This document shows, one piece after another, positions 3,258 through 30,470 of a stretch of DNA of 64,000 bases; position 1 is the stretch's first letter; the number at the start of each line of letters is the position of its first letter. The position numbers and the translations under genes are program-made. Below the pieces are notes generated by a model. It made no database searches and had not been told where the DNA came from. It saw nothing but the letters and a program-made list of their open reading frames with translations. Source of the DNA: an uncultured Porphyromonadaceae bacterium (GTDB lineage Bacteria > Bacteroidota > Bacteroidia > Bacteroidales > Muribaculaceae). The DNA is taken from assembly GCA_900541865.1 (NCBI GenBank), contig UQLO01000005.1:19177-83176 (forward strand). The letters are read 5' to 3'.

Positions 3258-3818
3258 TTATTTCCGGAGGTGGTCCATCAGCTCCCAGGCGAACATGCGT
3301 TCGCCGACCTGACGGAAGCCTGCACTGTCGTAGAGTCGCCGGGCGCGAAGGTTGCTCTTGTCGCATAGCAGCCCCAAGGGCTTGCCTGCCATGTGCGACC
3401 GCTCCGACATGGCCTCTATAAGCGTGCGGGCTATGCCGCGGCCCCGGTACTGAGGCAACACCGAAAGGCTGTCGAGATAGTATTCGTCGGAGTCGCACTC
3501 GTCGGGCATCTTGCCGTCCATATCGCGGTCCAGAACCAACTTTACTTCTTCGAAGAATGCTTTGCGGAGCTCATGGAGGCGGCCGCCGTCGTAGGCTACT
3601 ATAACTCCGGCAGCCGAGCCGTCGTCGTCGACGGCCTTCAGCGCGTTGAGGTAGGAATACTGCGAGTCGGTGCGCGCCGCAAGACGGCTGAACAGGCGCA
3701 CTACGTCGTCGACGGTATGCTCGCCGGCAAATTCACGGGCCAACTCCGGTCCGATCGCATCGACTACGGCCTCTCCTATAAGGCGTGCATCGTCTATGGT
3801 GGCTGCTACTATTTTCAT
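3258..3818 (-). CDS. GNAT-family N-acetyltransferase
   Basis: MKIVAATIDDARLIGEAVVDAI...QYRGRGIARTLIEAM...RRLYDSAGF contains the acetyl-CoA binding motif Q/RxxGxG/A. The listed longer ORF would run into the tRNA terminator, so the MKIV start is preferred. Confidence 0.7.
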   Translation of the reverse strand: MKIVAATIDDARLIGEAVVDAIGPELAREFAGEHTVDDVVRLFSRLAARTDSQYSYLNALKAVDDDGSAAGVIVAYDGGRLHELRKAFFEEVKLVLDRDMDGKMPDECDSDEYYLDSLSVLPQYRGRGIARTLIEAMSERSHMAGKPLGLLCDKSNLRARRLYDSAGFRQVGERMFAWELMDHLRK

Positions 3819-3840
3819 GATAAAGAGATTGGAGTATAAC

Positions 3841-3869
3841 AAAAAAAGTGGAGAAAAACTCTCCACTTT
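3841..3869 (-). terminator. Rho-independent terminator downstream of tRNA-Gln
   Basis: Stem GTGGAGA/TCTCCAC with a 6-nt loop, followed on the minus strand by a T7 run. Confidence 0.6.
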
Positions 3870-3944: not shown

Positions 3945-4180
3945 ATATGTTTTGCTCGGCTTGCGGAGCGGCGGGGCTCCCTTGCTTTTGCGAGTGCAAA
4001 GTTAGGGCGAATTTTCGAAGCGTGCAAATTTTTACGCCACTTTTTTTAGAGAAAATGCAAACAGATGTGTTTTTCTTCCCGTTTGGCGAATAAATTGGCC
4101 GTTAAGGCTCCGAAAAGCAGCCCTGCTCCAAGCCGTACAATATGCGGCAGGGAGCAGGGTATGCTGAGAAGGCAAAAAAA

Positions 4181-4985: not shown

Positions 4986-6518
4986 TCAGCGCACTTCTTT
5001 GCGAACTGTCACGGTGCCGTTGGCGCGGGTTGAGCGCACAAGGTAAACGGCTCCCGGGGCCGGAGTGTCGACGCGGGCGCCCGTGAGAGTGTAGTAGACT
5101 TGCTCAACAACCGGAGATGTAGCCACGATGCTTTCGATGCCGGCCAGGGGGTTGGTGACGATTTCGGAGTAGGTCGTCTCGGTGGCATTGCGGTAGCCGC
5201 AGCGCACGCCAACGGTGGCGTAGGGCTCGAGCACAACAAGCAGCACGCCGCCGTCGCCGGTGTGCATAATGGTGAAGTCGTTGGAGTAAGTGGCCGGTAC
5301 GTCGGTCATGGTCTGGTCGACGAAGTCGTTTTCGGGAGTGAAGGTGTGGAGCTCGCCGTTGTAGTACACGTTGTAGAAGAGTTTGGACGTATCCAGAGGA
5401 CGTCCCTCGGTGTCGGTGGAGGGCATCATGAAGTATACCACGCCCATGCCGTCGTTGTCGTCCCACTCGATGTCGAAGCTGTCGGGAGCCGGGGGCGTCT
5501 GAACGACGTTGGCCATCGGCACAAACTCCATGTCGGAGAATACCGACGAAGGATTGAGCTTCTCCGTGCCGATGTTGACGCAAAGCACGTCGCTGCTGAC
5601 CAGGCTTTCGCCATTGCGGCTAAAGCTGATTTTGTTCTTCTCGGTGAGGCCTTCGGCCAGGTTGCCCTCTGCTCCCACAGCAAAGGTGTAGAAGCCGATG
5701 TAGTTGCCCATGTACTGCGGAAGGTCAAACTCCCAGCCGGCCTCGGTTACGGTGCCTTTCACCCACGCTTCCGGGATCCAGCGGTTCAGGCCCTGCAGCC
5801 ACACTTCGTCGCCGGCAAAGCCCACTTCCATCTGGGCGTGAACCTCGGCGTTTTCGTTGTTGATGTAGTTGAACTCGTAGATTTCGGTCGAGGTGAACTC
5901 TGGTGCCGTCTGAGGCGTTTCGGTCCAGGGCTTGATGGTATTGCCCTTTTCGCCGTAGGTCAGGAAGCCGCCGTTCTGGTTTATGGCGCCTACCATGCCC
6001 GTCAGGCGTGCAACCTGCTCGTTTTCGATACCTTCGGTGGAGGGAAGAATCTGGGTGAGCACACCGTCGATCCAGCGCATGGTCATGTTGCAGTTTTCCG
6101 GTACCATCTCCATGGTGATGGTGCCGTTTTCGTCCAGTACGGGTGTGAGGGCGGCCAGATACCAGGTGTAGGCCTTGTCCTGATATATTTTCTGCGGGAA
6201 AGCAAAGATCACGTCGCCGTTGTCCTGAACGGTGCCGTGAATCCAGCTGCCGGTTTTCTTCTCCAGAAGGAAGTTCTCCAGATAGACGTCGTTGCCGTCG
6301 ACAACCATGTGGCGCTCCACGCCGTAGTTGCCCGTGATGGTGGCCGGATTCTGGTTGTTGTAGAGCAGCCAGGAAATCTGGCTCGAGCAGTAGGTCTGGG
6401 TCAGTTCGCCCGCGGGCTGCTCGGTAATCATCTCTGTGGGCCACTGGTAGTCGGCCGGCAGAGCCCATGCGGCAGCTGCGGTTGTCAGCGCGCACAGTGT
6501 TGCGTAGAAGTTTTTCAT
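4986..6518 (-). CDS. Secreted hypothetical protein with a T9SS (Por) C-terminal sorting domain
   Basis: N-terminal signal peptide MKNFYATLCALTTAAAAWA. The C-terminus ...VYYTLTGARVDTPAPGAVYLVRSTRANGTVTVRKEVR resembles a T9SS type-A CTD. Confidence 0.6.
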   Translation of the reverse strand: MKNFYATLCALTTAAAAWALPADYQWPTEMITEQPAGELTQTYCSSQISWLLYNNQNPATITGNYGVERHMVVDGNDVYLENFLLEKKTGSWIHGTVQDNGDVIFAFPQKIYQDKAYTWYLAALTPVLDENGTITMEMVPENCNMTMRWIDGVLTQILPSTEGIENEQVARLTGMVGAINQNGGFLTYGEKGNTIKPWTETPQTAPEFTSTEIYEFNYINNENAEVHAQMEVGFAGDEVWLQGLNRWIPEAWVKGTVTEAGWEFDLPQYMGNYIGFYTFAVGAEGNLAEGLTEKNKISFSRNGESLVSSDVLCVNIGTEKLNPSSVFSDMEFVPMANVVQTPPAPDSFDIEWDDNDGMGVVYFMMPSTDTEGRPLDTSKLFYNVYYNGELHTFTPENDFVDQTMTDVPATYSNDFTIMHTGDGGVLLVVLEPYATVGVRCGYRNATETTYSEIVTNPLAGIESIVATSPVVEQVYYTLTGARVDTPAPGAVYLVRSTRANGTVTVRKEVR

Positions 6519-8146: not shown

Positions 8147-8396
8147 TGTAGTTAATTGTTTGTGTTACTAAAAATTAAGTGCTCCTTAATTTCCCATCAC
8201 ACGGGATGCGCGGCGACTCCCTCGCGGGGCGCCCGCTAAAAAGCACTGCAAAGTTAAGCATTTCCTCCCACTCTCGCAAACATTCGCGCCCCGATTTCCA
8301 GTTTTTTTATTCCGCGCCCTCAAAAAAATGACAAAATGTCAACATCTGCGCACCCCGTCTATAGGTCGAGAAAAGTGTGCCGCGCAACGCCGCCGA

Positions 8397-8722
8397 GCTC
8401 TTTCGCATACGATATGGAGCGACGGCTTCAGCCGCCTCCGACCAGCTCTTTCGCAGGCGATATGGAGTGACGGCTTCAGCCGTCACGGCCCCGCCTCCAC
8501 CGCCCGGCCCCCGCCGACCCGCGCCGTCACCGCCTCGCCTCGCCGCCCTCCGGATTCCCGCAAAAAGTTACCTTCGCCCGGCCGCCACGGATTTCAGATT
8601 CCATATCGTCTGCGCAAACCATTGAGGTACAACTCCGTAGGAGTTGAATAAAGTTGCCAAGGGTGATAACCCCCGGACATATTAATCGCCAAATAATCAG
8701 CGACCCTGTAGGGGTCGACCCT
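8397..8722 (+). repeat. Direct repeat copy A (~325 bp) carrying two tandem 48-bp hairpin units, followed by a conserved ~200 bp hairpin-rich segment
   Basis: Unit ctctttcgcaggcgatatggag(c/t)gacggcttcagccgtc... holds the palindrome GACGGCT-TCA-GCCGTC. The remainder is about 85% identical to 10472-10795 (shared aactccgtaggagttgaataaag, gggtga(t/c)aacccc, atcagcgaccctgtaggggtcga). Confidence 0.8.
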
Positions 8723-8932
8723 TCGCGAATGGACGGGGGGCGCTGTTATTGTATGGGGCGGCATACCCGGGGCTGTCGCCCCGGGCTACATTCTTGAACC
8801 CTTACAGGGTTCTTTTTCATTAGTTTAGGTTGCTTTTTGAGGCGAATTCCGCCGGGGTTCTCGATTTGGAAACTGCAGAAAAAAAATCACCGCATCGGCG
8901 GATGCGGTGACTCTGAAGCGTTGTATGCGTGG

Positions 8933-10314
8933 TTAGTTCAGCGGTATGAGCGATATAATTTCGCGGTTGGGAGCGCTGAAGATGGTGTTGTGCTCGCCTG
9001 TGCGGAGGTCGACGCTGATGGCGACTTTGTAGCCGTCCGACCGGCGCGTACCCGTCAGCTGGGCGCTGGCGTGCTTATAGTCGACGGAATAGTCGGTGAT
9101 GTCGATTTCGTTGCCGATATTCAGGTCGGTCTGGCCGGTTGTAAGGGTCGTGGGGTCGAGCCATACCGCTTTGGAGGGTTTGCCGTCGTGGACGGTCAGG
9201 CCGTAGAAGCGGCCGTTGCAGATATTCTCGTTCCACAGCTCCATGTTGTCGGAATTGTCGAATTCGGTCGGTAGGTCTTCGAACTGACGAGTCTGCTTGT
9301 CGTAGACGAAGTAGGAGTTGGGGTTGCCCCAGTCTGAGTAGGTTTTGACAACTACTTTGTTGGCCGTCTCATACCACGACGAGGGGTTACTGTAATAGTC
9401 GCTCCAGTTCGGACTATTGGTGCCGATTACTTCTTCCGAGCTCTGGCCGTAGGAAGAACCTACGCTAATGAATTTCGACGGCTCGTCAGCCACAGCAGCG
9501 TACTGTATAATTCCATTTTCAAGGAGGATATATCCGCCGACAATACCATTGTTATTGAGATTTTCATAGCCGCCGTTGGGATATACCAGGCTCACAGTTT
9601 GTCTCATGCCTTTTTGATCGGTCGGCAGGTATGGACCGGAAATGGCTATCACGCCACGGTCCATAGCGAACAACCTGGGATAAATCGGGTATTCTATGGG
9701 TGCGCCATCGGTTGTCAGCTTCTCAAAGGTTCCTTCGAAGGAGGAAAGGGTTATGCGTCCGATGCAGACAGTTGTTAAGCTCGGGTTGAAGACTCCTAAA
9801 AGTCGGGAGGCACCGTCTTCGGTAAAGGCGCCCCGTTCTGAGTACGGATCGAACCTTTCCTCACCTATAACGGCACTGTAGATGAGACCATCGCTGCGAC
9901 GCACAAGAAGTACTTGCAGCTCAAAGGGTACATCCTCGACTTTGTCGCCGTCTTCATCGTAGTAGGAGCACCCTTCGAAGAACAGATAGTTCTCTGTGAG
10001 GTTTTTGACCCGGTAGGGCACTACCGACAGATTGGAAAGCGTTTCTCGGCCGTTCTCTTCGTTGACAAATACGCCGATGGCCGAGATATTGCCGTTGGCG
10101 TCGAGTTTGAATGTGCCCGCATGGGTCAGTTCGCCGTCTACTGCGCGCGATTCCACTGCGCCGAGGGTGGTGAGCATCTCGCAGTTCGACAGGTCGAATC
10201 GCGTTATAGTACTCTTACCCCCCCCAAAAATGGATCGTCTGATTTACAGGAACTTATGGTGCCGACAAACAGAGCGGTTGCCAGAGCCATGCCTGCAATT
10301 TTGAGCTTGGTCAT
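8933..10314 (-). pseudogene. Lipoprotein gene split by a G8 homopolymer. Signal peptide plus lipobox (10314-10218) is out of frame with the 414-aa body (10177-8933); a phase-variable OFF state or a frameshift.
   Basis: ATG at 10314 encodes MTKLKIAGMALATALFVGTISSCKSDDPFLGG, then hits TAA just after the G8 tract (plus-strand C8 at 10218-10225). The body frame is open from 10243 (…IFGGGKSTITRFDLSNCEMLTTLGAV…). The frame offset is 2, so G9 or G6 restores a single lipoprotein ORF. Confidence 0.6.
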
Positions 10315-10471
10315 ATTAAGGTTGTTGTTTGGTGATAATGTTTTTTCTTCGATATCTTAAGCAGTAATACAAAATTACTCATTTTCAACCAATCTCCCAA
10401 AAAATAAATCCTAAAAAGTGAAAAAAAGTCGACAATCGGACAATCGGACAATTTTCGACGCCCCATACGTG

Positions 10472-10795
10472 TCTTTCGCAGGCGATATGGAGCGACGGCT
10501 TCAGCCGTCACCGCCCGGCTCTTTCGCAGGCGATATGGAGCGACGGCTTCAGCCGTCACCGCCCGGCTCTTTCGCAGGCGATATGGAGTGACGGCTTCAG
10601 CCGTCGCCGCCCCGCCTCGCCGCCCTCCGGATTCCCGCAAAAAGTTACCCTCGCTAGCCCGGCGCGGATTTCAAACCCCATATCGCCTGCGCAAACCATT
10701 GACGCACAACTCCGTAGGAGTTGAATAAAGTAGCCGGGGGTGACAACCCCTGGATCAATTAACCTCTTGATAATCAGCGACCCTGTAGGGGTCGA
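10472..10795 (+). repeat. Direct repeat copy B (~325 bp) with three tandem 48-bp hairpin units
   Basis: Three near-identical 48-bp units (10472-10615), then the same conserved segment as copy A. A spurious ORF (10311-10640) with the TAEAVAPYRLRKSRAV periodicity arises from these repeats. Confidence 0.8.
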
Positions 10796-11056
10796 ACACG
10801 GTCCGCCCTTTCGCGGAGGATTCCCTCCCGGGAATGGGCGAGGGCTGAAGCCCTCGGTCCATACGTTTGGAGACGCTTTCGCGGCCGGCTGCCGTCTTTT
10901 CGCCGCAGCGCCATGCGCCGGGCGCCCAACTTTCAGCGCTCACAGAGCGTTATGCGTAAGGTCTGAGGTGCAAAATACCTTGTTTGGGGTATTTCAGACG
11001 CCGTTTCAGGCCCTTAACTTTGCACTATCTTACGAAACTCCAAAAACAAGTAAATT

Positions 11057-15811: not shown

Positions 15812-16486
15812 TTATTGTCCGCCGTAAGTGAAGGTGTCGACGTGTACCCGCTGCCCGCGGTGTGTAAGCCGGGCGCGGTAGGTGCGCACATCGGCGCCGT
15901 TTTTGATGCGGATATTGACGAAGCCGCCGTTGGGAGCCTGACTGTTCATGCTGAACATCACCACGTCGACGCTGTAGCGGCCCGGCTGAGGATTCGACCA
16001 GAAGACGTTCTCCACGGCCGTCTGCCGGCGGGTGCCTCCCTCGCGGTTGTCCACATCGAGCTGGGCCCCCGTATAGGGATTGCTCATATTGTTGTAGGCA
16101 ATCTCATTGCCGGAAGGCTCGGTGACGTGAACGTCCACATCGCCCGGAAAGCCCCATTCGATGGTAACGCGAATCTCGCCGTCCTGCCCGACATCGGTGC
16201 GCACCGGAGGCGCCGGCTCTGGTTCGGGCTCGGGCTCCGGCTCAGGCTCCGGTTCGGGTTCGGGTTCAGGTTCGGGCTCGGGTTGCGGTTCTGGCTCGGG
16301 CTCGGGTTCGGGCTGCGGGGCAGGTTCCGGAGCGGGGTCGTCGTAGATTTCGATTGGTGCAGGTTCCGGCAGAGGGGCGGCCGCAATTTCCGGCTCGGTG
16401 CGACACGAGTGACACTTGCTCAGAAGAAGCAGCGTCACAAGCAGTATGAATGCGCCTGCTATACAGGCTTTCAGTTGATTGTTCAT
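15812..16486 (-). CDS. Membrane-anchored paralog 1: TM helix, a (Pro-Glu)n linker and a DUF2135(YfaP)-like C-terminal beta-domain
   Basis: [25 protein letters not shown], then [18 protein letters not shown]..., then [27 protein letters not shown]...LDVDNREGG...[20 protein letters not shown]. The N-terminus is near-identical to paralogs 2 and 3. Confidence 0.6.
16207..16336. repeat. Hexanucleotide (GGYTCN)n tandem repeat encoding the (PE)n linker of paralog 1
   Basis: About 21 consecutive near-identical 6-nt units. On the antisense strand they read as GSGSGS. Confidence 0.8.
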
Positions 16487-16495
16487 AGCCGGAAT

Positions 16496-17089
16496 TTATT
16501 GGTTGGCCCGCGGTTGGTAGTCTATGTCGACAACGCTAACCTCCTGGCCGACACTGCGAAGCGTAACGGGGTATTCGGTGCGTTCGCCGTTGTTGAACAC
16601 CGTCACCATCACCGTACCGCCGTTCTCGCCGCCGGACCGTTCGCTGAAGAACTTCACCATCACGTGATAGCGGCCGGCCGGCGGACGCTGCCAGTAGACG
16701 TTTTCGGCCGCCGGATGCCCCGGCGAGCCCCCCTGAAGGTTGTCGACGTCGAGGTTGCCGCCGGTCTGGTAGTCGTTTTTGTTCATAAAATTGATAGTAA
16801 CGCCGTTGGGCTCGGTGACGTGGATGTCGATGTCGCCCGGAAACTCCCACGTCAGCACTATCTTAAGGTCGCCGGTACCCCCGATGTTTGCGGCGTCGGT
16901 GGGGTCTTCCGCGGGAGGCTCCTCCACAGGAGGTTCCTCAATTACCGGAGGGTCTGCCACCGGCTGCTGCGCGATGGGGGGCGGTTCAGGAGTTCGCTCA
17001 TCGCGGCAGCGGGTGCACTTGCTCAGCAGCAGCAATGTGACAAGCAGTATGAAAGCACCGGCTATACAGGCTTTAAGTTGGTTGTTCAT
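16496..17089 (-). CDS. Membrane-anchored paralog 2 (TM helix, Pro-rich linker, DUF2135-like domain)
   Basis: Same [26 protein letters not shown]-terminus. C-terminal GDLKIVLTWEFPGDIDIHVTEPNGVTI...LDVDNLQGG...ENVYWQRPPAGRYHVMVKFF. Confidence 0.6.
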   Translation of the reverse strand: MNNQLKACIAGAFILLVTLLLLSKCTRCRDERTPEPPPIAQQPVADPPVIEEPPVEEPPAEDPTDAANIGGTGDLKIVLTWEFPGDIDIHVTEPNGVTINFMNKNDYQTGGNLDVDNLQGGSPGHPAAENVYWQRPPAGRYHVMVKFFSERSGGENGGTVMVTVFNNGERTEYPVTLRSVGQEVSVVDIDYQPRANQ

Positions 17090-17108
17090 ATGGGTTTGGA
17101 GAGTTGGT

Positions 17109-17588
17109 TTATTGTGCAGTATAACGGAAGGTATGGACTGTCTCGTCCTGTCCGGTCGTGGTAAGACGCAGGTTGAACTCCTGCTGCCGGCCGTTGACCT
17201 TCACCACAACGCGCACAGGGCCACCCTGAGGAGCCTCGTCGTCGACGCGGTAGTAGACCACCCGAACAACATAGGTGCCCTCCATAGGGCGCCGCCAGTA
17301 TGCGTTCTCGGCCGACCCTTCGCCGCCCTGACGGTCGTCGACGTCGAGGACGCCGCCGCCGTTGGCCGAGTCGTCCATGTTCATAAACGAAAGCTCGGTG
17401 CCGTTGGGCTGGTCGACGTGAAGGTCTACGTCGCCCGGAAAGTCCCAGAAGAGCGTAACTTTGATGTCGCCGTCGCCGCCCACTTCCTCCGGAGCCGGCC
17501 CGCGACGACGCCCGCACGTGCTCAGCAGCAGCAGCGTAATCAGCAGGATGAAAGCCCCGGCAAGATATGCTTTGAGTTGGTTGTGCAT
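17109..17588 (-). CDS. Membrane-anchored paralog 3 (TM helix, short linker, DUF2135-like domain)
   Basis: MHNQLKAYLAGAFILLITLLLLSTC...GDIKVTLFWDFPGDVDLHVDQPNGTEL...LDVDDRQGG...ENAYWRRPMEGTYVVRVVYY. Confidence 0.6.
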   Translation of the reverse strand: MHNQLKAYLAGAFILLITLLLLSTCGRRRGPAPEEVGGDGDIKVTLFWDFPGDVDLHVDQPNGTELSFMNMDDSANGGGVLDVDDRQGGEGSAENAYWRRPMEGTYVVRVVYYRVDDEAPQGGPVRVVVKVNGRQQEFNLRLTTTGQDETVHTFRYTAQ

Positions 17589-20687: not shown

Positions 20688-22538
20688 TTATTTATCGACG
20701 ATTGGTTCTTCGCTTTCTGTTTCCGCACGGTCGAGTACCTTCATACTCTCGTCGGTGGGGGTGGCTACGGCTGTTTCGGCAACAACGGAGTCGGTTGGTG
20801 CAGAGGCCACTGTCTGTTCGGCCGGTGCGGTGCCGAAGCCAAACTTTCCAAGGACGTTGTCGTAGGCGCTGATAAACGTGTCAGCCATTAGCACTCCGAT
20901 TACGATGCCGGCTATCATCAGCACCATTCCCACAACCGCCGGCAGAAGCGAGCGCCAAATCTTCCAGCTTCCGGGCACGAAGTTTTCGTATCGGTAGGCG
21001 AAAAGATCCGAAACTCGGCTGAAGAAGCCGTTTTTCTTGGCTTGGGTGAAGTCGGCTTTGTAGTTGCCGTCGAGGGTAGAAAGTATTTGGGTCTCTTCCC
21101 TTGCCGGTATGCCCAGGAAGGCCTTGGCGCGATGCGTCTGCAGGTTCAACTGAATATCAATAGTAGCATTCCGGGTCTGGCCGTCGGGGCTTAAGGTGAA
21201 AATAACCTGCGATGCAAAATAGAATTCCGGGGACGCATTGTCGTCTGCAGTCTGAACGGTGATGGTTTCACTCGTAGTATTCATGCCCACAGGCAAAACC
21301 ACGGTCAGCGTCTTTGCCGACGGGGCCGTTTCGGCATTTTGGGGCCCGGGAGCGGGAGGCATCACGGGGACCGCAGGTGCCTTGCGACGTACTTTCACGG
21401 TGATGACATTCCCCGTCAGCGTAGCTCCGACGATGTTGTAGACGCTCGTGGGAGGAAGGCTGAACTTAGCTGCCAGCGCCGTCGCGTCGTGGAAGTCGCG
21501 CTCGAAGCTGACTATGTCTTCGCCAATAAAAGTGTAGCCTATGGGATTGACCGGGATGGGAGCAGTGCTCTCAAGAGTAGTCAGCAGGTCCGGCAGGGGA
21601 AGAGGTCGGTGGTCGCCGTCGACAACATTCACCGTAAAGGTCTTGCGAAGCGCCGGAGGGCTGAAAGACAGCGTGACTTCGCCGGCCTCCGGACTCAGAG
21701 TCGCCTCAACGAAGGGCGGAGTGGCTATTTTTCTGTCCCCGTTGCAGTATGCGGCTTCGACTTGGGCCTCTGTCAGGGTGTACTGCATGTCTTCGTAGGC
21801 CTGCGGAGAGTAGTCCAGTTCGCGGGTATTGATGGTGATGGCGCCCCCGTCCATTGCTCGTGGCACGAAGCTGCCGTTGCGCCGTCTTACGTTCACCAAA
21901 ACTTTGAAGCGAACCGCAAGCTCATCCGGGAAGAACATAAACCGAGGCTGAGCCGTCTCCTTGAACGGCCCGAAATAGACGGTCGACGAATCTTCCAGGC
22001 GTGTGCAGTGGGGCAGGGCGGCTATCAGGGCCGGTATGTTCTCTTCGGTGGCGGTAACGTATTGGGGATGGCCAGATGCGTGCCGCATAGTGATTTCGCC
22101 ACCCCAGCGGGGCTGGATGTGGAATTGTCCCAGCAAAGCCCCCAGGTCCGCTTCCGGGAAAGCCGGACGAATCACACCCGGCGCAAAGCGCAGCGTGTTG
22201 CCCAGATGCACAACGGGGTTGCCAATCAGCATCTTGGTGGCTTCGTGGAGTATATAGGAGGGTGCCACGGGCTGGTTCTGCGCGTTCAGGAAGGTGTAGC
22301 CGTGGGGCACCCGCAGTAGTATGCGCAGCGCCTCCGTGCGGCCCGAATTGCTCACGAAGTTACACAGGGCCAGCTCGTAGGTGTCCCATTCCGGACCAAG
22401 TATGGCCGAAATATAGCTTTCGCCCGAACACATGGCGTGAACGTCTTTATCCTCCGGCGCCGGGCCGGGCCAGTTTATCTGGGTGAATACCAGAAAGCCG
22501 GGATGACGGCCGGCTATTGCCAATCCTATTTGTGCCAT
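20688..22538 (-). CDS. Hypothetical 616-aa protein with a C-terminal TM helix
   Basis: Large soluble region plus a Pro-rich segment. TM helix LLPAVVGMVLMIAGIVIGVLMA near the C-terminus, then an acidic tail. An 8-bp gap to neighbours. Confidence 0.45.
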   Translation of the reverse strand: MAQIGLAIAGRHPGFLVFTQINWPGPAPEDKDVHAMCSGESYISAILGPEWDTYELALCNFVSNSGRTEALRILLRVPHGYTFLNAQNQPVAPSYILHEATKMLIGNPVVHLGNTLRFAPGVIRPAFPEADLGALLGQFHIQPRWGGEITMRHASGHPQYVTATEENIPALIAALPHCTRLEDSSTVYFGPFKETAQPRFMFFPDELAVRFKVLVNVRRRNGSFVPRAMDGGAITINTRELDYSPQAYEDMQYTLTEAQVEAAYCNGDRKIATPPFVEATLSPEAGEVTLSFSPPALRKTFTVNVVDGDHRPLPLPDLLTTLESTAPIPVNPIGYTFIGEDIVSFERDFHDATALAAKFSLPPTSVYNIVGATLTGNVITVKVRRKAPAVPVMPPAPGPQNAETAPSAKTLTVVLPVGMNTTSETITVQTADDNASPEFYFASQVIFTLSPDGQTRNATIDIQLNLQTHRAKAFLGIPAREETQILSTLDGNYKADFTQAKKNGFFSRVSDLFAYRYENFVPGSWKIWRSLLPAVVGMVLMIAGIVIGVLMADTFISAYDNVLGKFGFGTAPAEQTVASAPTDSVVAETAVATPTDESMKVLDRAETESEEPIVDK

Positions 22539-22545
22539 GGTGATG

Positions 22546-24528
22546 TCAGCCTATTATGGGTTTGGTGAAGTAGCTGCGTATCTGGCGGCCGAAGCTGCCC
22601 GGTCGTTCCGGCGGGCAGTAGTCGCATATTACGCGAAGTATGGTCGACGATCCCGTCGGGTCGTAGCGGAACATATTGCCGACGGTGAATTTGCCAAGAC
22701 TGAAGGGGAACACGCGCGGGTGACCGTTCAGCGCAGGGTCGGTCGACACATTGATTTTGTGGCGTATACAGCCCTGAATGAGTTTTTCGCGAGTGGCCAG
22801 ATTAAGAATCTCGGTCACTTTACGGTGTGCCGTCTCGCGGGGATCCCCCGGCGGCAGCGTGTCGCATTTGGTAACGATGAAGTGAAGACCGTCGACGGAG
22901 TCCATGATGTCGGCGTTCGAGTTGTAGCCGTTGTCGTCGCCGAACATCAGCGCTATCATCGCCTCAAGAGCCTGCGTCTGCTGCTTGGCCTGAAGGTATT
23001 CCGCCGTCGGGTCTACAAGGAGGAAGAACACCTTCCTGTTGCCCGACCGAAGTATTTCGGCGGCGTTGACGCCCATATCCTCGAAGCTGAGCACAGGGCG
23101 TCCGTACTGGTCGTGGCCGTGCGCTATGCCGGTGCGGAAGGCCTCCCCGGCCATCTCGAAGAGGTTGAATTTGTAGGTATATTTGTCGTCGAATTTGGCG
23201 ACTTCAGCCTTGATGGTGGCAACAAAGTCGCCCGGCGTGCCCGAAACCGCGATGCCGTGGTCAGAATAGTCCTTAAGGATGGCGCCGTAGTCGCCGCTGT
23301 AGCGCCGCTGGTCGAACCACAGGTTGTTGTGGCGCAGCAGTCCGCTCAGCACACATGTCTTGCCGGTCGACTGGATGCCGAAGAACACTACATCGGTGAT
23401 ACCTTCCTCTCCCAGGCCGCTGCCGTAGCGCGATTCCGAGTTCGGCAGTGGTGGCAGCGAGGCCAGCACGTTCTCGTAGTCGTAGACGTTGCTCTGGAGC
23501 ATGGCTTCGTCGAGGCCCGAAGCCTCCATAAGCTCTTCTTTGGTGAAGTACGGGCTTTCGAGCATACGTCGGAATTCAGGCACCGGTATCGTCGTCGGGT
23601 TGGCCTTCATGGCTGCGAGGGCTTCTCCCTTGAGTTCCTGGATTCGCTGGCCGGCTACTGCCGCGTAGGGATGGTTGGGGTTGGCTTCCAGGAAGTTGAT
23701 AATGGAGTATATGTCCAGCTGTGAGTACATCTGCCATTCGGCGGCGCTGTCGCGCAGTCGGGCCACACTGCCCGAGTGGCGACCGCGGCGAAGGAACATG
23801 GCATCGTATGTTTCGGCCGCGCCGAGTATGTCGCTTTGACGGTTTACCCACTCCCAGGCGTAGTCGTCGGCCTTGGCGCGTATGCTGTCGTCGACGGGCA
23901 TCGTTTTCAGGAAGTTGTCCAGCTCGCGGATGTCGCGGAGCTTGCCGTCCGGGCCGAAGAGCGCCGCCCAGCGGTCGGAGACAACCCGGGAATACATATT
24001 CTTTATTTCCTGCATCCACTGCAGGGTCTGCCTTACGTCGTCGGAAGCCGCCGGCAGCTTGCCGTGTACGTCGATGAAGTTGCGCATCGCCGTTATCAAC
24101 TCGCCCGGAGGCAGTGCTCCCGACGAGGCGTAGCCTTCGCGGGCCTGCGCCATACGTTCCTGCAGACTTATCCACGACTTGCGCTCGCGAAGGCGCTCGG
24201 CGTAGGTGCGGGCTTGCGCAAGGTGCTCGGCGGCGTAGGGTCGGCCGTCCCACTTGCTGAAGTAGTCGTTGAGCGCTTTCTCGGTGTCGGGATCGTCGAC
24301 GCGGTTGGTCACTGCGGCCGTCAGTTGCTCGAATTCGATGCCTTCGTTGGGATCGGGGAGCTGGTCGCGAAGCACAAGCGCCTCCCGAAGCACATTGTGG
24401 AACCCGGCATCGGAGGCCGCAAGATCCTCCAGGTCGGCCAGTGCAAATTTCCCCGTTTGGAGATATACTACCAACTCATTGGCGCTCTTCTTTTTGAGAG
24501 CTATTTTTTCGCTTGTCTTTAAGGGCAT
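22546..24528 (-). CDS. P-loop GTPase (660 aa): helical N-terminal half, C-terminal GTPase domain
   Basis: G1 GIQSTGKTC, G3-like FEMAGE, G4 IVTKCDT (TKxD). Confidence 0.55.
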   Translation of the reverse strand: MPLKTSEKIALKKKSANELVVYLQTGKFALADLEDLAASDAGFHNVLREALVLRDQLPDPNEGIEFEQLTAAVTNRVDDPDTEKALNDYFSKWDGRPYAAEHLAQARTYAERLRERKSWISLQERMAQAREGYASSGALPPGELITAMRNFIDVHGKLPAASDDVRQTLQWMQEIKNMYSRVVSDRWAALFGPDGKLRDIRELDNFLKTMPVDDSIRAKADDYAWEWVNRQSDILGAAETYDAMFLRRGRHSGSVARLRDSAAEWQMYSQLDIYSIINFLEANPNHPYAAVAGQRIQELKGEALAAMKANPTTIPVPEFRRMLESPYFTKEELMEASGLDEAMLQSNVYDYENVLASLPPLPNSESRYGSGLGEEGITDVVFFGIQSTGKTCVLSGLLRHNNLWFDQRRYSGDYGAILKDYSDHGIAVSGTPGDFVATIKAEVAKFDDKYTYKFNLFEMAGEAFRTGIAHGHDQYGRPVLSFEDMGVNAAEILRSGNRKVFFLLVDPTAEYLQAKQQTQALEAMIALMFGDDNGYNSNADIMDSVDGLHFIVTKCDTLPPGDPRETAHRKVTEILNLATREKLIQGCIRHKINVSTDPALNGHPRVFPFSLGKFTVGNMFRYDPTGSSTILRVICDYCPPERPGSFGRQIRSYFTKPIIG

Positions 24529-24564
24529 GTCTGTCGGTGGTTTAAGAGAAAGATGACAGGGGCG

Positions 24565-25545
24565 TCAGAGGGGAAATCCAAGGGTATCGGAAATCTTCTT
24601 GCCTTTGTCGATGCCCTTGCGGAGGGCGCGGTAACTGATCAGATAATAGAATAAAGCAATAACAGCAGCAAAAACCGCCAAAACAACGGACCGCCAGTGC
24701 GGCTTGCAGACTTTGGCAAATTCCGCTTTGTAGTAGTGCGGCTGATAGCGGTAGACGGTCGGCTCGTTGCTTCGGATTGTGTACTGGTTGCCGGTGCCGG
24801 CGTAGACCATCGGCAGTTCCATCGATGCCGATATGTCGGTCAGAACCCGTCCTACTTGACCCGACAGGGTGTCCAGCTGTTCTCCCAACTCGCCGTAGCG
24901 AAGCGGTATGCGCGAGTTGCCGTTTTCGTGGAGGCGCTCTATGCCTCTGTTGAAGCTGTTGCGGAACATTCTGTTGCCCAGACGAAGGTCTTCTATGCGG
25001 GCCTGCATGGTGCCTCGGTTATTGTTGATGATATTTTGGCTGAAGTGCTGCGGGTTGGACCCCAAGGTGTTGGAAATATAGGCGCCCAGCGCCGGCGAGC
25101 AGTTGCGGTTGCCCAACCGAAGATAGTTCTCCAGACCTCGGAATGTGCCGTCAAGGCGCGCTGTCTCGGTGCGGTCGAAGGTCGCGATCAGGCTGTCGAT
25201 GCCTACGATGTCTTCATCGGCCGCCGCCGATAGTTCACCGCGCTGGAAGATAAAGTTGATGGTGATGGAAGTGGGTAAAACGGCGAAGCCAAGTATCACA
25301 AACAAGACCGCCATGGAGGCTATCTCTACGCTAAGCCACTTGCCGAAGTCCGTGGTGCACGTTTTTCCCTTGACTGCATAGAATAAAAGTATGAAGCCGC
25401 CGATAAGTACGCATACGCCTAAAATGACACTCAGCGGACTGCTCCAGCCGAGCAGCGAGCATCCGCAAGCGGTACCGGCCGCCATCACTATGAGTCCGAG
25501 TATGGAAATCAACATTCCTGCCGATATTTTTATATGTGTCTGCAT
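24565..25545 (-). CDS. Integral membrane protein (3 N-terminal TM helices and 1 C-terminal), hypothetical
   Basis: Hydrophobic segments MLISILGLIVMAAG, SVILGVCVLIGGFILLFY, MAVLFVILGFAVL and VVLAVFAAVIALFYYLI. Confidence 0.45.
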   Translation of the reverse strand: MQTHIKISAGMLISILGLIVMAAGTACGCSLLGWSSPLSVILGVCVLIGGFILLFYAVKGKTCTTDFGKWLSVEIASMAVLFVILGFAVLPTSITINFIFQRGELSAAADEDIVGIDSLIATFDRTETARLDGTFRGLENYLRLGNRNCSPALGAYISNTLGSNPQHFSQNIINNNRGTMQARIEDLRLGNRMFRNSFNRGIERLHENGNSRIPLRYGELGEQLDTLSGQVGRVLTDISASMELPMVYAGTGNQYTIRSNEPTVYRYQPHYYKAEFAKVCKPHWRSVVLAVFAAVIALFYYLISYRALRKGIDKGKKISDTLGFPL

Positions 25546-25558
25546 TTCTTTCTTTGTG

Positions 25559-27445
25559 CTATACGGTTTTTATGAGGAATGGAGCGAAATTGTTCCACCA
25601 CGATGCATTGACCGCGGTGACGGTAGCTTTGGAAGCCGGATTGGCGCTCACTGTGAAGGTGATGGGGTCGAAGCCGCGCCCCGTTTCGGATGTGCCGGTG
25701 GTGGCCGAGCAGTTTATGTTGATGCTCGTGCCCTGGACTTCGCTGGTAAAGTCGGCTTCGATGGGTGCCGTGTCCCGTCGGTTGGAAATGTAGCGCAGTT
25801 TGCCGCTGTCGGTCCCGGTGATTTCAAGCTCCATGGTGTAGATGGGAGGCAGCGCCGTGGCGTCGTCCGTCCCTAAATAGTCGATTTCGCAGAACTTGAA
25901 GGTGCCGCGGCCGGAGGCGAGGGCTGCACGGAAGTCATCGTAGTTCGCTATGGTGGTGTAGATTTGCTGCAGAGCCGGCCCGATCTGGACTATGGGGCCG
26001 ATGGTGCTGCTTTGGGCGCCGCGCACCGGAAGAGCCGTGCTTTGGAGCACTTCTATGATTTCCGGAGTGGTCAGCGTCGGGTCTATGCTCTTCACCAAGC
26101 CCACGCAGCCCGCAACTATAGGCGCAGAGAAGCTCGTACCGTCAACGAGGGTGTAGCCCGTGGTGCCCGGTATAAGGCCGGGAACCTGCGCGCCCGGTGC
26201 CGACAGTGTGCTCTCGAAGATGCTGTCCGAGGCGATGTTGCCGAAGTTGCTGAACTCCGCTTTGCTCATAGAGGCATCCGTGGCGCTGACCTTGATGGTC
26301 TCGTCGCCGCGCTTGGAGGCATCCAAGGCAAGGAATATGTTCTCATTGCCTGCCGCCCACACTATGCTGACGTAGTTGCGCCGGGCCATTTCGAACACGT
26401 AGTGCCACACTGCCTCCTGGGCTATAAGCTCTGTCCGGGCGGCCGCTATCTGCTGCTCGAGGGGCCATCCGGCAACCTCTTCGGCGAAGCTAAGTCCGGC
26501 CGAGATGTTGATTACCTGCGCTTTGTGGTTCATCGCATAGAGTATGCCCTGAAGCATGGCCAGACAACCGAAGCGGTGTCCCAGGCTGATGGGCAGGAAG
26601 CTGCATTTGGGGGCCATGCCGGCACTGGCGCGGCCGTTGCCGGTGGCGCCCAGCACAATTCCGGCAACCATGGTGCCGTGAGCGTACGTCGGGTCGGGAC
26701 GGCTCGGGTTGTAGTCCGAAGGCAGGGCGACGATGGAGTCGCCGCGGGCCACGCTGTAGGGCCGGACAACGTTGGTTTCGGCAAATTCTGCGTTGCTCAG
26801 ATCGAAATAGCTGTCGACAACGGCTATCAACACGTCGGGCGAACCCATGGTGAGGTCCCAAGCGTCGTAGGCCTTTATGGCGTCGAAGTAGTAGGCGTGC
26901 TCGCTCCGGCCGAAAACCGGGTCGTTGGGACGAAGCCCCATCTCCATAACGCTTTCCTCGAAGACCATGAAGGGTATGTCGGGTATGCGCTCCGGAAGCT
27001 CCGTAATCATGGCCACGCGGCGCTCTGCCGGGACCTGAATCGACATCAGCTTGGTATTCGGGTCGTAGAAAAGTATCTGATAGTCCGGTGCCGGGTAGGC
27101 CGCCGTAAATTGCTCTACCCACGACTCGTATTCGGCTTGGCCGGTCTCGAGGTCGAAAAGCACGTTCAGGCGGTTCGCCACCAACTGGTGCCCGTCATCG
27201 TCAATGACGTCGTCCTCATTGATCGGAGGAACGACGACACTGACGGGCTGATTCGGACTCGGCACCCCCACCGAGGGTGTCTCGCTGTCGCGGCAGCTGC
27301 GGAACTGGCTCAGCAGGAACAGGAACAGCGCCAGAAGGGCTACAAAGCCTGCCGTCCGCAGAAAGCACCCCGCGCAGCCCCACGGTTCCCAGAAGAAGTA
27401 GTGCCACTTCACCGGTCCTTTGGAATCAAAATGTACGCGCTTCAT
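25559..27445 (-). CDS. Membrane-anchored S8 (subtilisin-family) serine peptidase
   Basis: N-terminal TM helix. Catalytic triad context: Asp AVVDSYFD, His HGTMVAGIV, Ser GTSFSAPIVAG. Confidence 0.8.
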   Translation of the reverse strand: MKRVHFDSKGPVKWHYFFWEPWGCAGCFLRTAGFVALLALFLFLLSQFRSCRDSETPSVGVPSPNQPVSVVVPPINEDDVIDDDGHQLVANRLNVLFDLETGQAEYESWVEQFTAAYPAPDYQILFYDPNTKLMSIQVPAERRVAMITELPERIPDIPFMVFEESVMEMGLRPNDPVFGRSEHAYYFDAIKAYDAWDLTMGSPDVLIAVVDSYFDLSNAEFAETNVVRPYSVARGDSIVALPSDYNPSRPDPTYAHGTMVAGIVLGATGNGRASAGMAPKCSFLPISLGHRFGCLAMLQGILYAMNHKAQVINISAGLSFAEEVAGWPLEQQIAAARTELIAQEAVWHYVFEMARRNYVSIVWAAGNENIFLALDASKRGDETIKVSATDASMSKAEFSNFGNIASDSIFESTLSAPGAQVPGLIPGTTGYTLVDGTSFSAPIVAGCVGLVKSIDPTLTTPEIIEVLQSTALPVRGAQSSTIGPIVQIGPALQQIYTTIANYDDFRAALASGRGTFKFCEIDYLGTDDATALPPIYTMELEITGTDSGKLRYISNRRDTAPIEADFTSEVQGTSININCSATTGTSETGRGFDPITFTVSANPASKATVTAVNASWWNNFAPFLIKTV

Positions 27446-27504
27446 TTATTGTGGATTATTAAACAATTTACACTCTGCTTTATTTAGTTGCTACGTTTTA
27501 GCTC

Positions 27505-30438: not shown

Positions 30439-30470
30439 TGCAGGATTGTGTTATGGTGGTACCTCCGGTG

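Follow-up and report, generated by a model that had tools for sequence, protein, structure and literature searches.

REP, BIME and REPIN elements, known above all from Proteobacteria, come in tens to hundreds of copies and in association with RAYT genes. Paired small or att-type repeats, in turn, can bracket gene segments that have no recombinase of their own, as in MITE-flanked mobilisation units and cis-mobilisable elements. The BOX elements of Streptococcus pneumoniae are arranged as boxA-boxBn-boxC around a boxB module of ~45 bp; they exist in more than 100 dispersed copies per genome and have been linked to the expression and phase variation of neighbouring genes (PMC3049150). The BrickBuilt and PgRS/MITE464 repeats of Porphyromonas gingivalis, a member of the Bacteroidales, are built from units of 23 nt (41 nt in PgRS) that form no hairpin, with ~19 dispersed copies per genome (PMC4596501). 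Finally, Acido-Lenti-1 is a motif reported from Acidobacteria and Lentisphaerae, a candidate small RNA without demonstrated RNA function (PMC2864571). It has since been reported in multiple copies in other genomes (PMC10059132) and, in a 2026 preprint, downstream of variable protease genes in Tannerella (10.64898/2026.02.09.704811).

The locus described here resembles each of these systems in part. It lies in a 64-kb stretch of DNA, the whole of which was analysed and is called the window in the following, and consists of two composite repeats of ~325 bp, copies A and B, that bracket a lipoprotein gene between the L25 and flavodoxin genes. Its features, by position in the window, are:

8249-8285, minus strand: canonical promoter of the L25 gene (TTTG, 20 nt, TAACTTTG)
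8397-8722, plus strand: copy A, composite repeat between the 3' flank of the lipoprotein gene and the L25 promoter
8399-8494, plus strand: two tandem 48-bp units, (GA)GCTCTTTCGCAGGCGA-TATGGAG-hairpin CGACGGCTTCAGCCGTCA-CCGCCCG, the first slightly decayed
8599-8617, minus strand: inverted partial unit of copy A (TTGCGCAGACGATATGGAA on the minus strand), closing the palindrome 8447-8620
8623-8682, minus strand: Acido-Lenti-1-like double hairpin of copy A (80 bits with our own covariance model, R1)
8701-8717, no strand assigned: hairpin C of copy A (CGACCCTGTAGGGGTCG), at the end of the A/B homology
8760-8819, plus strand: Acido-Lenti-1 motif (RF01687), in opposite orientation to the copies within the repeats
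8883-8914, minus strand: intrinsic terminator of the lipoprotein gene
8933-10314, minus strand: lipoprotein gene, with signal peptide, lipobox Cys and then an out-of-frame G8 tract
10370-10404, minus strand: canonical Bacteroidetes promoter of the lipoprotein gene (TTTG, 20 nt, TAATTTTG)
10472-10795, plus strand: copy B, composite repeat upstream of the lipoprotein promoter
10472-10615, plus strand: three tandem 48-bp units, of which 10472-10519 is missing from the independent assembly L001
10676-10694, minus strand: inverted partial unit of copy B (TTGCGCAGGCGATATGGGG on the minus strand), closing the palindrome 10568-10697
10700-10759, minus strand: Acido-Lenti-1-like double hairpin of copy B (R1, 81.8 bits; Rfam, 30.0 bits, sub-threshold)
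10778-10794, no strand assigned: hairpin C of copy B
10837-10910, no strand assigned: degenerate third partial copy, in part homologous to the right-hand element in the second genome (L084, see below)

Copies A and B are direct repeats with ~82-85% identity (81.8% over 324 columns between 8399-8718 and 10472-10795 in blastn, E=9e-88; mean column identity of 84% in MAFFT), which agrees with the original prediction of repeats in the same orientation at ~85%. A repeat search returned them as the sole non-coding direct repeats of at least 60 nt in the whole window. As also predicted, each starts with two to three tandem 48-bp units: two in copy A (8399-8446 and 8447-8494) and three in copy B, where Tandem Repeats Finder reports a period of 48 bp, 2.9 copies and 97% matches for 10472-10612. 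The unit hairpin GACGGCTTCAGCCGTC, formerly described as a perfect palindrome, is in fact a 6-bp stem with a TTCA loop; it is present in four exact copies and one with a single mismatch, against 0.13 expected in shuffles. Immediately 5' of these hairpins lies a single-stranded motif, in which ATGG is invariant and TATGGAG typical.

The remaining parts follow in the same order in both copies: the unit array leads into a centre, an inverted decayed unit, a double hairpin on the minus strand and one further hairpin. The short hairpins that had been listed were found in both copies; the inverted partial units at 8599-8617 and 10676-10694 had been overlooked. Since these pair with the 5' half of the units, they close an imperfect palindrome of 125-220 nt that comprises array, centre and inverted decayed unit. 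The palindromic cores have predicted-fold z-scores of -3 to -9, and at their edges lie inverted arms of 17-19 nt (89-94%; TTTCGCAGGCGATATGG / CCATATCGCCTGCGCAA). The left arm recurs in every tandem unit, and the homology between A and B continues for ~100 nt past the right arm. Decay is visible in unit A1, in degenerate inverted hairpins and in the third partial copy, which comprises a unit-type hairpin in inverted orientation that shows compensatory changes (TATGGACC-GAGGGCTTCAGCCCTC, minus strand, 10837-10863) and a segment, GGAGACGCTTTCGC...CCGTCTTTTCGCC, whose homologue is the beginning of the right-hand element in L084. We also considered coding potential in the units and in the conserved 3' flank, and rejected it: frames and lengths differ among copies and species.

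The bracketed gene is, as predicted, a lipoprotein gene (8933-10314, minus strand) that is frameshifted by its G8 tract (C8 at 10218-10225 on the plus strand). Both neighbouring promoters sit between the repeats and the respective genes, so that the repeats are not 5' UTRs; copy A is upstream of the L25 promoter and outside the L25 transcript. The spacers that separate each repeat from its promoter were judged not to be homologous in A and B, as their common part is the promoter consensus only.

In its design, this arrangement is much like that of BOX elements. Both are modular, intergenic and non-coding and contain a tandem module of similar size (48 bp here), the number of which varies between strains in BOX; in both, the array is enclosed by mutually complementary ends, so that the whole folds into a long stem-loop. 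The BOX-type architecture is thus present, with two to three units between complementary arms and a unit number that varies between assemblies, albeit with no sequence relationship. Unlike BOX, the repeats are G+C-rich, include two extra modules (the Acido-Lenti-1-like double hairpin and hairpin C) and are found, in the DNA available, as two copies flanking one gene. BrickBuilt elements share the order of parts, a spacer-less tandem minisatellite between a 'leader' and a 'tail', as well as the intergenic position and the variable internal copy number. Moreover, the unit start GAGCTCTTTCGCA (GAGACGCTTTCGCA in L084) is reminiscent of the IS5-type terminal repeat of BrickBuilt (GAGACCTTCGCA / GAGCCCTTCGCA), a likeness between short motifs as read from a table in PMC4596501 and not a tested homology. 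In contrast to BrickBuilt, this motif occurs inside every unit and in one orientation, not only at the element ends. With no transposase in the window, it is the only lead to a parent IS of the kind expected for a MITE.

Like REP, BIME and REPIN elements, the repeats feature a conserved single-stranded motif 5' of a co-varying hairpin stem, and units of alternating orientation that form larger intergenic palindromes and mosaics; unlike them, they show neither high copy number nor a RAYT gene in the DNA available. With MITE-flanked and cis-mobilisable units, the locus has in common a single cargo gene between non-coding repeats, the lack of an internal recombinase and the occurrence at different chromosomal sites. 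Unlike in these units, no target duplications, att core or partner enzyme were found for the cassette, whose mobility is putative.

The different chromosomal site is that of a second genome. In a human-gut Muribaculaceae contig (L084; L090 for the surrounding 21 kb), a homologue of the lipoprotein with 61% amino-acid identity is flanked by the same module types, with compensatory changes in their hairpins, which contradicts a simple local duplication confined to the window, the case in which the original prediction would have failed. There, the neighbours of the gene are a DUF5723 gene and sprA instead of the L25 and flavodoxin genes, and synteny breaks exactly at the cassette in both genomes, whose closest relatives are without it. 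In L084, the left-hand core forms an almost perfect hairpin of 152 nt (-85 kcal/mol). The left element there separates the 3' ends of two convergent genes and can therefore not be a site upstream of a promoter.

Within each genome, the two copies are much more similar (88% and 86% for A vs B, 86% for L084-left vs L084-right) than in any comparison between the window and L084 (62-67%), which indicates, as far as the sequences can tell, homogenisation or repeated duplication. The 48-bp unit is ~88-96% conserved between the species, compared with 62-67% for the rest of the element. This higher conservation hints at a sequence-specific function, be it as a protein-binding site or as RNA, and it would be left unexplained by a model in which the repeats are purely recombination substrates. 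In the unit hairpins, 94.7% of the cells pair, both sides change in five of eight pairs, and none of 500 shuffles reaches the score; given that the modules are found in two genomes only, these compensatory changes represent few independent events, in about three hairpin types. The lipoprotein genes themselves are 90-98% identical at their ends and 60-78% in the middle. The best-conserved non-coding stretch is 8750-8900, which is 92-94% identical to L084 and thereby exceeds most of the coding region.

The otherwise near-identical independent assembly L001 has exactly one 48-bp unit fewer (two vs three), a difference that could be an assembly collapse. In the lipoprotein family, a gene with one copy in L088 is present as a tandem duplication in L089, and a further member, L087, lies between the two copies of a 106-bp direct repeat (96% identity) that is unrelated in sequence to copies A and B. 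The idea that the repeats mediate deletion or duplication of the intervening segment accordingly fares unevenly: the concerted similarity of the copies and the unit difference speak for recombination, but no deletion, circular or amplified allele of the window cassette was recovered among the assemblies compared, all of which have the arm-enclosed segment in one orientation.

A dispersed non-autonomous element, as the original prediction had also considered, finds no support in the distribution of the modules. In the 64-kb window, as in the 21 kb around the L084 locus, they occur only next to the lipoprotein gene, and ~0.83 Mb from other Muribaculaceae (80 L25 loci and eight loci with distant homologues of the lipoprotein) contain none, these stretches being the DNA that the verdict on multi-copy dispersal covers. 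The modules were likewise absent from an Rfam search of 149 kb and had no matches in phage, plasmid and viral collections. Translated open frames over the elements (741 aa) yielded no further copies among 5.8 billion proteins; the weight of this negative is small, since gene calling leaves the elements without an ORF in the source assembly as well. The single scan of a metagenome relied on an exact 31-mer, in data that did not include the window's own species. No target-site duplications adjoin the arms in the four copies (two per genome). No clean empty site was found among L25 relatives, a DUF5723 relative and the flavodoxin/L25 contigs of other samples; in these candidates, synteny differs in the relatives, and short-read contigs end at the hairpins. 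Finally, the Pfam-screened ORFs of the window include no recombinase, transposase, HUH, integrase, reverse transcriptase or cas gene, and the called genes in the 21 kb of L090 no recombinase, transposase or HUH gene.

Since a second species has the repeats around the homologue as well, and at another chromosomal location, they look like the boundaries of a movable, recombination-prone cassette. The explanation that we consider best, although we hold it tentatively and at slightly less than an even chance, is that they are structured repeats akin to BOX, BrickBuilt and MITEs that act at the DNA level as the recombinogenic boundaries of a small lipoprotein cassette. Copies A and B would be the left and right boundary modules of a cassette of ~2.5 kb (roughly 8400 to 10900), and would move with the gene instead of being dispersed through the genome. 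The unit array would grow or shrink by slippage or unequal crossing-over, as the observed difference of three vs two units suggests, and the direct copies would exchange sequence by homologous recombination or gene conversion, consistent with the observed concerted similarity. Recombination between them might further loop out, re-insert or amplify the 2.07-kb segment with the phase-variable gene, and the repeats might supply the homology through which strains trade the divergent middle of the gene. As a secondary effect, the G+C-rich hairpins and the terminator-like Acido-Lenti-1 motif on the plus strand could serve as transcription barriers that shield the switchable gene from its neighbours, the L25 operon and the flavodoxin gene. 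Should this explanation hold, a surface lipoprotein of this gut Muribaculaceae lineage is controlled on two levels, by an on/off switch in a homopolymer within the gene and by the repeats around it, the latter letting the cassette as a whole be lost, amplified, relocated or exchanged for another allele.

Alternatively, the repeats may be a functionless by-product: when the lipoprotein gene inserted, a hairpin-rich spacer would have been copied through a segmental duplication or an illegitimate recombination event, and the copies would now be decaying. We regard this as unlikely, but it accounts for the presence, in the DNA available, of only two copies per genome, always beside the gene, for the decay seen in unit A1, in the inverted hairpins and in the third partial copy, and for L087, where a quite different sequence has been duplicated in a similar manner. 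It does not readily explain why the flanked state is found in two species, why copies are so much more alike within a genome than between genomes, why hairpin pairing survives complete sequence replacement, or why the unit is conserved so far above the neighbouring repeat sequence.

On another reading, which the last point also favours, the modules would be folded single-stranded or cruciform DNA sites for a recombinase encoded elsewhere, with HUH/Y1-type, integron-integrase-like and tyrosine recombinases as candidates. The gene would then be a recombinase-less cassette that is mobilised in trans, in the manner of integron cassettes, REP/RAYT substrates or cis-mobilisable elements, and the direct repeats would be leftovers of site-specific integration. 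An invariant ATGG (TATGGAG) in front of hairpins that keep their pairing with otherwise free sequence follows the logic of REP elements and IS200/IS605 ends; the modules are found as inverted pairs, in both orientations; the two chromosomal locations are unrelated and both are synteny breakpoints; and three family members independently show flanking direct repeats or tandem duplication. Against this stand the lack of a recombinase, transposase or HUH gene among the ORFs and called genes screened in the two stretches, of a defined cleavage site, of target duplications and of attC-type R''/R' sites, as well as the unrelated repeats of L087. TATGGRG occurs at background frequency near other family members, and TATGGRG plus hairpin was consequently rejected as a flank signature of the whole family. 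Taken as a whole, this reading is rather improbable.

We give a similarly low chance to a functional RNA, either an Acido-Lenti-1 small RNA or a transcript folded by unit/anti-unit pairing, that is encoded or contained in the repeats and regulates the lipoprotein gene or its neighbours. The original prediction had named a structured RNA or regulatory element as a possibility but recognised no known ncRNA consensus. An Rfam run, however, matched Acido-Lenti-1 at 8766-8811(+) with 39.6 bits, against a gathering threshold of 37, and at the same relative place in L084 (6705-6750) with 40.9 bits, and it is on this match that the RNA part of the prediction would now stand. The match agrees with RF01687 in its two-hairpin 46-nt motif with a conserved GGCUA linker and exceeds the curated score once per genome. 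In an alignment of five copies of the Acido-Lenti-1-like motif, 94.7% of the cells pair (35-56% in shifted-register controls), the covariation score is reached by none of 500 shuffles, and both sides change in 5 of 15 pairs, these compensatory changes again being few independent events. Further points in favour of an RNA are two G-U pairs in the copy A motif, on the sense strand of the motif; the succession of an anti-unit and three hairpins on the plus strand, where the second hairpin of 8760-8819 is followed by TTCTTTTTC, a terminator-like U-run; and the conservation of 8750-8900.

On the other side, no canonical Bacteroidetes promoter precedes any module, the only candidate being a relaxed TAACTTTT box within the palindrome. 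Unlike Acido-Lenti-1 as described, the motif is here part of a DNA repeat mosaic and lies on both strands, which fits a DNA palindrome better than one oriented RNA gene, and its in-repeat copies remain below the Rfam threshold (30.0 bits at 10708-10753(-); copy A missing from the hits at E<=10). In the long-range stem, the two arms resemble each other as copies of one motif and not through compensatory change, and Acido-Lenti-1 itself, as outlined above, lacks a demonstrated RNA function and is multi-copy elsewhere. With this locus, Acido-Lenti-1 gains a concrete and directly testable context, as one module in a mosaic of DNA repeats on either side of a variable surface gene.

More doubtful still is a combination of these ideas, in which the lipoprotein gene and its modules constitute a new kind of recombinase-less mobile cassette that is served by an enzyme in trans and has TATGGAG plus hairpin, and the Acido-Lenti-1 double hairpin, as folded-DNA boundary sites. 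If it were true, the first function of Acido-Lenti-1 would be that of a DNA site, not of a small RNA, and this would explain its position beside genes for variable surface or secreted proteins in Bacteroidales.

Least probable, indeed very unlikely, is that the unit arrays, with their direct repeats and one inverted site, are bound by a transcription factor or nucleoid protein and act as upstream regulatory regions of promoters ~70-150 bp away: the core CGCAKRCGATATGG does occur seven times (five direct, two inverted; 0.01 expected), the units are strongly conserved between species, and A and B lie upstream of canonical minus-strand promoters with their units promoter-proximal, but the left element of L084, between convergent 3' ends, has no promoter to serve, the closest relative has no such element before L25, and binding to duplex DNA would leave the selection on hairpins unexplained.

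Several known classes of element were considered, most of which were rejected. A conserved leader or regulatory element of L25 was found at none of 80 Muribaculaceae L25 loci, the closest relative having a plain AT-rich spacer there, and a general Muribaculaceae terminator or REP motif was rejected on the available DNA searched, as was a phage or plasmid origin on the collections mentioned above. CRISPR had already been dismissed in the original prediction, rightly so, as the units abut without spacers and the Pfam-screened ORFs contain no Cas domains. A DGR disagrees with only 12 of 62 substitutions at A, two non-coding repeats and no reverse transcriptase in the window; an integron with modules that have no R''/R' core sites and with the lack of an integrase among the Pfam-screened ORFs; and for retrons and bridge-RNA systems, defining features or enzymes are absent. 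An inverton is unlikely, given that the enclosed segment is palindromic in the best-preserved copy, that there is only a relaxed -7 box and that the window contains no recombinase.

Short-read assemblies break at the hairpin repeats of this locus. As for the cargo, the lipoprotein matched no Pfam or NCBIfam family, and its mature part is predicted to fold into a beta-propeller (AlphaFold, pLDDT 81) of a generic type, similar to peptidase, TolB and lectin propellers.

The lipoprotein gene of this Muribaculaceae member is bracketed by two direct repeats, copy A (8397–8722) and copy B (10472–10795), which are the sole non-coding direct repeats of at least 60 nt within the 64-kb window. Blastn aligns 8399–8718 with 10472–10795 at 81.8% identity over 324 columns (E=9e-88), the mean column identity of the two copies is 84% (MAFFT), and Tandem Repeats Finder detects a 48-bp period at 10472–10612 (2.9 copies, 97% matches), which bears out the original prediction of direct repeats with tandem 48-bp units. 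Copy A has two units. There are four exact copies of the GACGGCTTCAGCCGTC hairpin and one with a single mismatch (0.13 matches expected), and TTTCGCAGGCGATATGGAG, the 5′ half of the unit, occurs five times directly and twice inverted (0.01 expected). On the minus strand, the order is L25 operon, copy A, lipoprotein gene (8933–10314) and copy B, with these features:

48-bp unit: (GA)GCTCTTTCGCAGGCGA-TATGGAG-[CGACGGC TTCA GCCGTCA]-CCGCCCG
Hairpin C, last hairpin of a copy: CGACCCTGTAGGGGTCG, after the palindrome and double hairpin
8146 downwards, minus strand: L25 – peptidyl-tRNA hydrolase – S4-domain operon
8256, minus strand: canonical Bacteroidetes promoter of L25 (TTTG, 20 nt, TAnnTTTG)
8599–8617, copy A: inverted partial unit with decayed hairpin, ~85–190 nt downstream of the unit
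8766–8811, plus strand: Acido-Lenti-1 match in opposite orientation, just beyond copy A (39.6 bits, above threshold)
10377, minus strand: canonical Bacteroidetes promoter of the lipoprotein gene (TTTG, 20 nt, TAnnTTTG)
10676–10694, copy B: inverted partial unit with decayed hairpin, ~85–190 nt downstream of the unit
10708–10753, minus strand: double hairpin in copy B matching Rfam Acido-Lenti-1 (30.0 bits, below the threshold of 37)
10837–10910: degenerate third partial copy, beyond copy B
11057, plus strand: flavodoxin gene, after copy B

In each copy, the last unit, a G+C-rich centre and the inverted partial unit therefore form an imperfect palindrome; on both strands, the z-scores of the predicted folds lie between −3 and −6.6. 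A unit-type hairpin, GAGGGCTTCAGCCCTC, lies inverted in the third partial copy and shows compensatory changes. The claim that no known ncRNA consensus is present did not survive the Rfam search, given the match at 8766–8811 just outside copy A, in which a T-run follows the second hairpin.

We tentatively regard the repeats as DNA-level structured modules that form both boundaries of a small lipoprotein cassette. Homologous recombination between the copies would loop out, re-insert or amplify a 2.07-kb segment, the conserved flanks could permit exchange of the divergent middle of the lipoprotein gene, and the hairpins, together with the terminator-like plus-strand Acido-Lenti-1 copy, may insulate transcription. 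Alongside this proposal stand the direct orientation and palindromic folding potential of the repeats, the maintenance of their hairpins, their travel with the gene, the concerted similarity of the copies and the difference in unit number, all of which sequence comparison shows or supports.

The repeat, the lipoprotein gene and the flavodoxin gene occur in none of 80 L25 loci of other Muribaculaceae, and the closest species (93% L25 identity) has a plain AT-rich spacer upstream of L25, beside a divergent CBM26 gene; an L25 leader is thereby ruled out. Phage, plasmid and viral collections hold no match to the repeat. When metagenome contigs were scanned for exact matches to the unit, one locus emerged, L084, on a 120-kb human-gut contig. 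Its lipoprotein, P0002, is 61% identical and is encoded in a different chromosomal context, with a DUF5723 gene on one side and sprA on the other; both flanks carry the kinds of module found in the window:

L084 right element: a single unit, 95.7% identical to that of the window, a centre and an inverted unit
L084 left element: two such units forming an almost perfect palindrome of 152 nt (−85 kcal/mol, z about −9)

The inverted unit of the right element has an intact but different hairpin, CGGGGATTGCAAATCCCCG. Acido-Lenti-1-like modules precede and follow the left palindrome, and an above-threshold match (40.9 bits) has the same place and orientation as window 8766–8811. A covariance model built from five double hairpins (R1) found the motif at two loci only in 834 kb of DNA, with the window and the extended second locus (L090) contributing three copies each; a generic search for ATGGRG plus hairpin returned the same two loci and one unrelated coding-region match (23529, minus strand), and Rfam detected no Acido-Lenti-1 beyond them in a further 149 kb. 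The modules recur in a second genome, and no copy lies away from the lipoprotein gene in the DNA scanned. In the nearest relative of the second genome (87% DUF5723 identity), homology extends precisely as far as the stop codon of DUF5723, beyond which lies another gene. Since the relatives' L25 and DUF5723 loci diverge at the cassette, it lies at a synteny breakpoint in both genomes; none of these loci offers a clean empty site.

Contiguous homology between the window and L084 spans 8555–10527, and module-level homology continues on both sides, which supports, at the level of sequence, that the modules travel with the lipoprotein gene. The gene ends and adjoining non-coding DNA (8750–9150, 10050–10350) are 90–98% identical, the middle of the gene (9150–10050) 60–78%, the repeats 40–86% and the unit itself about 88–96%. 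Conserved ends around a divergent middle are the pattern expected if the middle were swapped by recombination at conserved flanks. In the segment common to the four elements, copies A and B share 88.1% and the two L084 elements 86.4%, and all four window-versus-L084 pairs share 62–66%; the Acido-Lenti-1/hairpin C module behaves alike (85.9% versus 66–67%). This supports concerted evolution of the flanking copies: either recombination or gene conversion keeps them alike, or the flanked state arose anew in each lineage independently.

The units were compared over 11 copies that carry three different stem sequences: 94.7% of cells pair and five of eight pairs have changes on both sides; the observed score was reached by none of 500 shuffles, and shifted registers pair at 29–59%. 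The Acido-Lenti-1-like double hairpin gave a similar result. Selection of the hairpins as hairpins is thereby supported, with two genomes providing few independent events. Beside these data, a functionless duplication appears unlikely.

Variation in unit number between assemblies is likewise supported: L001, an independent assembly of the same species, differs from the window over 8300–10900 by exactly one absent unit (10472–10519) and one substitution, although this may be assembly collapse. Four short-read contigs from two other samples end at window 8474, 8425, 10777 and 10840. These points coincide exactly with unit hairpins, hairpin C and the hairpin at 10840, and the assemblies of the two samples therefore lack the cassette region.

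The boundary model does not explain why conservation is higher in the unit than in the remaining repeat sequence, which keeps three further readings alive. A site for a trans-acting recombinase working on folded DNA is improbable; recombinase, transposase, reverse transcriptase and Cas domains were absent from the about 49/50 long ORFs of the window screened. We consider a functional RNA equally improbable. The lipoprotein and L25 promoters sit between repeats and genes, and the repeats therefore lie upstream of the promoters, outside the 5′ UTRs. Acido-Lenti-1 is reported as a multi-copy match on one chromosome of Vibrio anguillarum (PMC10059132) and, in Tannerella, behind variable genes for KLIKK proteases, on their downstream side (bioRxiv 10.64898/2026.02.09.704811), occurrences that fit a repeat module better than a single small-RNA gene. 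A protein-binding array is very improbable. A classical inverton is unlikely because the interior is palindromic. An integron attC is ruled out (no core sites, no integrase among the ORFs screened), as are a DGR, since substitutions are not adenine-specific (12/62) and both repeats are non-coding, and, in line with the original prediction, CRISPR, since the units lack spacers. Of that prediction's further suggestions, a recombinogenic, structured element is partly supported by the comparison, and the dispersed-mobile-element and RNA readings are unproven.

In the repeats, a variable tandem module lies between ends complementary to each other, and the whole can fold into a long stem-loop, as in pneumococcal BOX elements (PMC3049150). 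Within Bacteroidales, two MITEs of Porphyromonas gingivalis, BrickBuilt and PgRS, match this architecture and are built around minisatellites without spacers (PMC4596501). At its start (GAGCTCTTTCGCA / GAGACGCTTTCGCA), the unit resembles IS5-type ends listed for BrickBuilt (PMC4596501), which we take as a lead only. Unlike in these families, no dispersed copies were found in the DNA scanned and all copies flank one gene; target duplications were absent beside the repeats at both loci. It is conceivable that the modules, and with them the orphan Acido-Lenti-1 motif, serve as recognition sites through which the cassette is mobilised.

The cargo gene encodes a signal peptide and a lipobox cysteine, directly after which a G8 tract (C8 on the plus strand, 10218–10225) puts the gene out of frame; G9 would restore the frame. 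Its L084 homologue has G9 (about 5262–5270) and needs G8, and the homologue at locus L085 has G7 (about 3950–3956) and needs G8. These three family members, from three assemblies, are each exactly one base off the open frame, and the consensus state is therefore 'off' in all of them. The lipoprotein matches no Pfam or NCBIfam family. Its AlphaFold model (17-sequence alignment; pLDDT 80.9, pTM 0.78) is a predicted all-beta propeller with generic resemblance only to those of prolyl oligopeptidases, TolB and lectins. The family comprises just 19 proteins, with every homologue in a different context. One (L087) is bracketed by a 106-bp direct repeat (1654–1759, 3742–3847; 96% identity), unrelated to copies A and B and containing terminator-like hairpins; another is tandemly duplicated (1,539 bp) in L089 (3833–6900) and single-copy at the same locus in L088. 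These rearrangements are similar to those proposed for the window cassette.

Upstream of the lipoprotein promoter, ~30–50 nt from its −33 box, lies an 8-bp tandem repeat, GACAATCG (2.8 copies, 10431–10452), which has one copy fewer in L084. In the L25 5′ untranslated region, ~27 nt of G+C-rich sequence are inserted (~8209–8235; CGGGCGCCCCGCGAGGGAGTCGCCGCG on the minus strand) in comparison with the closest relative (L004), whose leader is otherwise conserved. Elsewhere in the window, a minus-strand cluster at 25559–33644 encodes an S8 subtilase, a 'putative bacterial virulence factor' (PF10139) protein and an SrfB-family protein, adjoined by ORFs without a Pfam family (20688–25545). Three adjoining small genes (15812–17588, minus strand) share a conserved N-terminal segment, with 94-nt repeats at 16399, 17002 and 17501, and one contains a GGCTCG-type hexamer array (16209–16327). 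Finally, imperfect 15/18/30-bp tandem repeats (CAGCAG...GGC) occupy 1259–1402 within a GYF/CD225-domain gene (905–1660).
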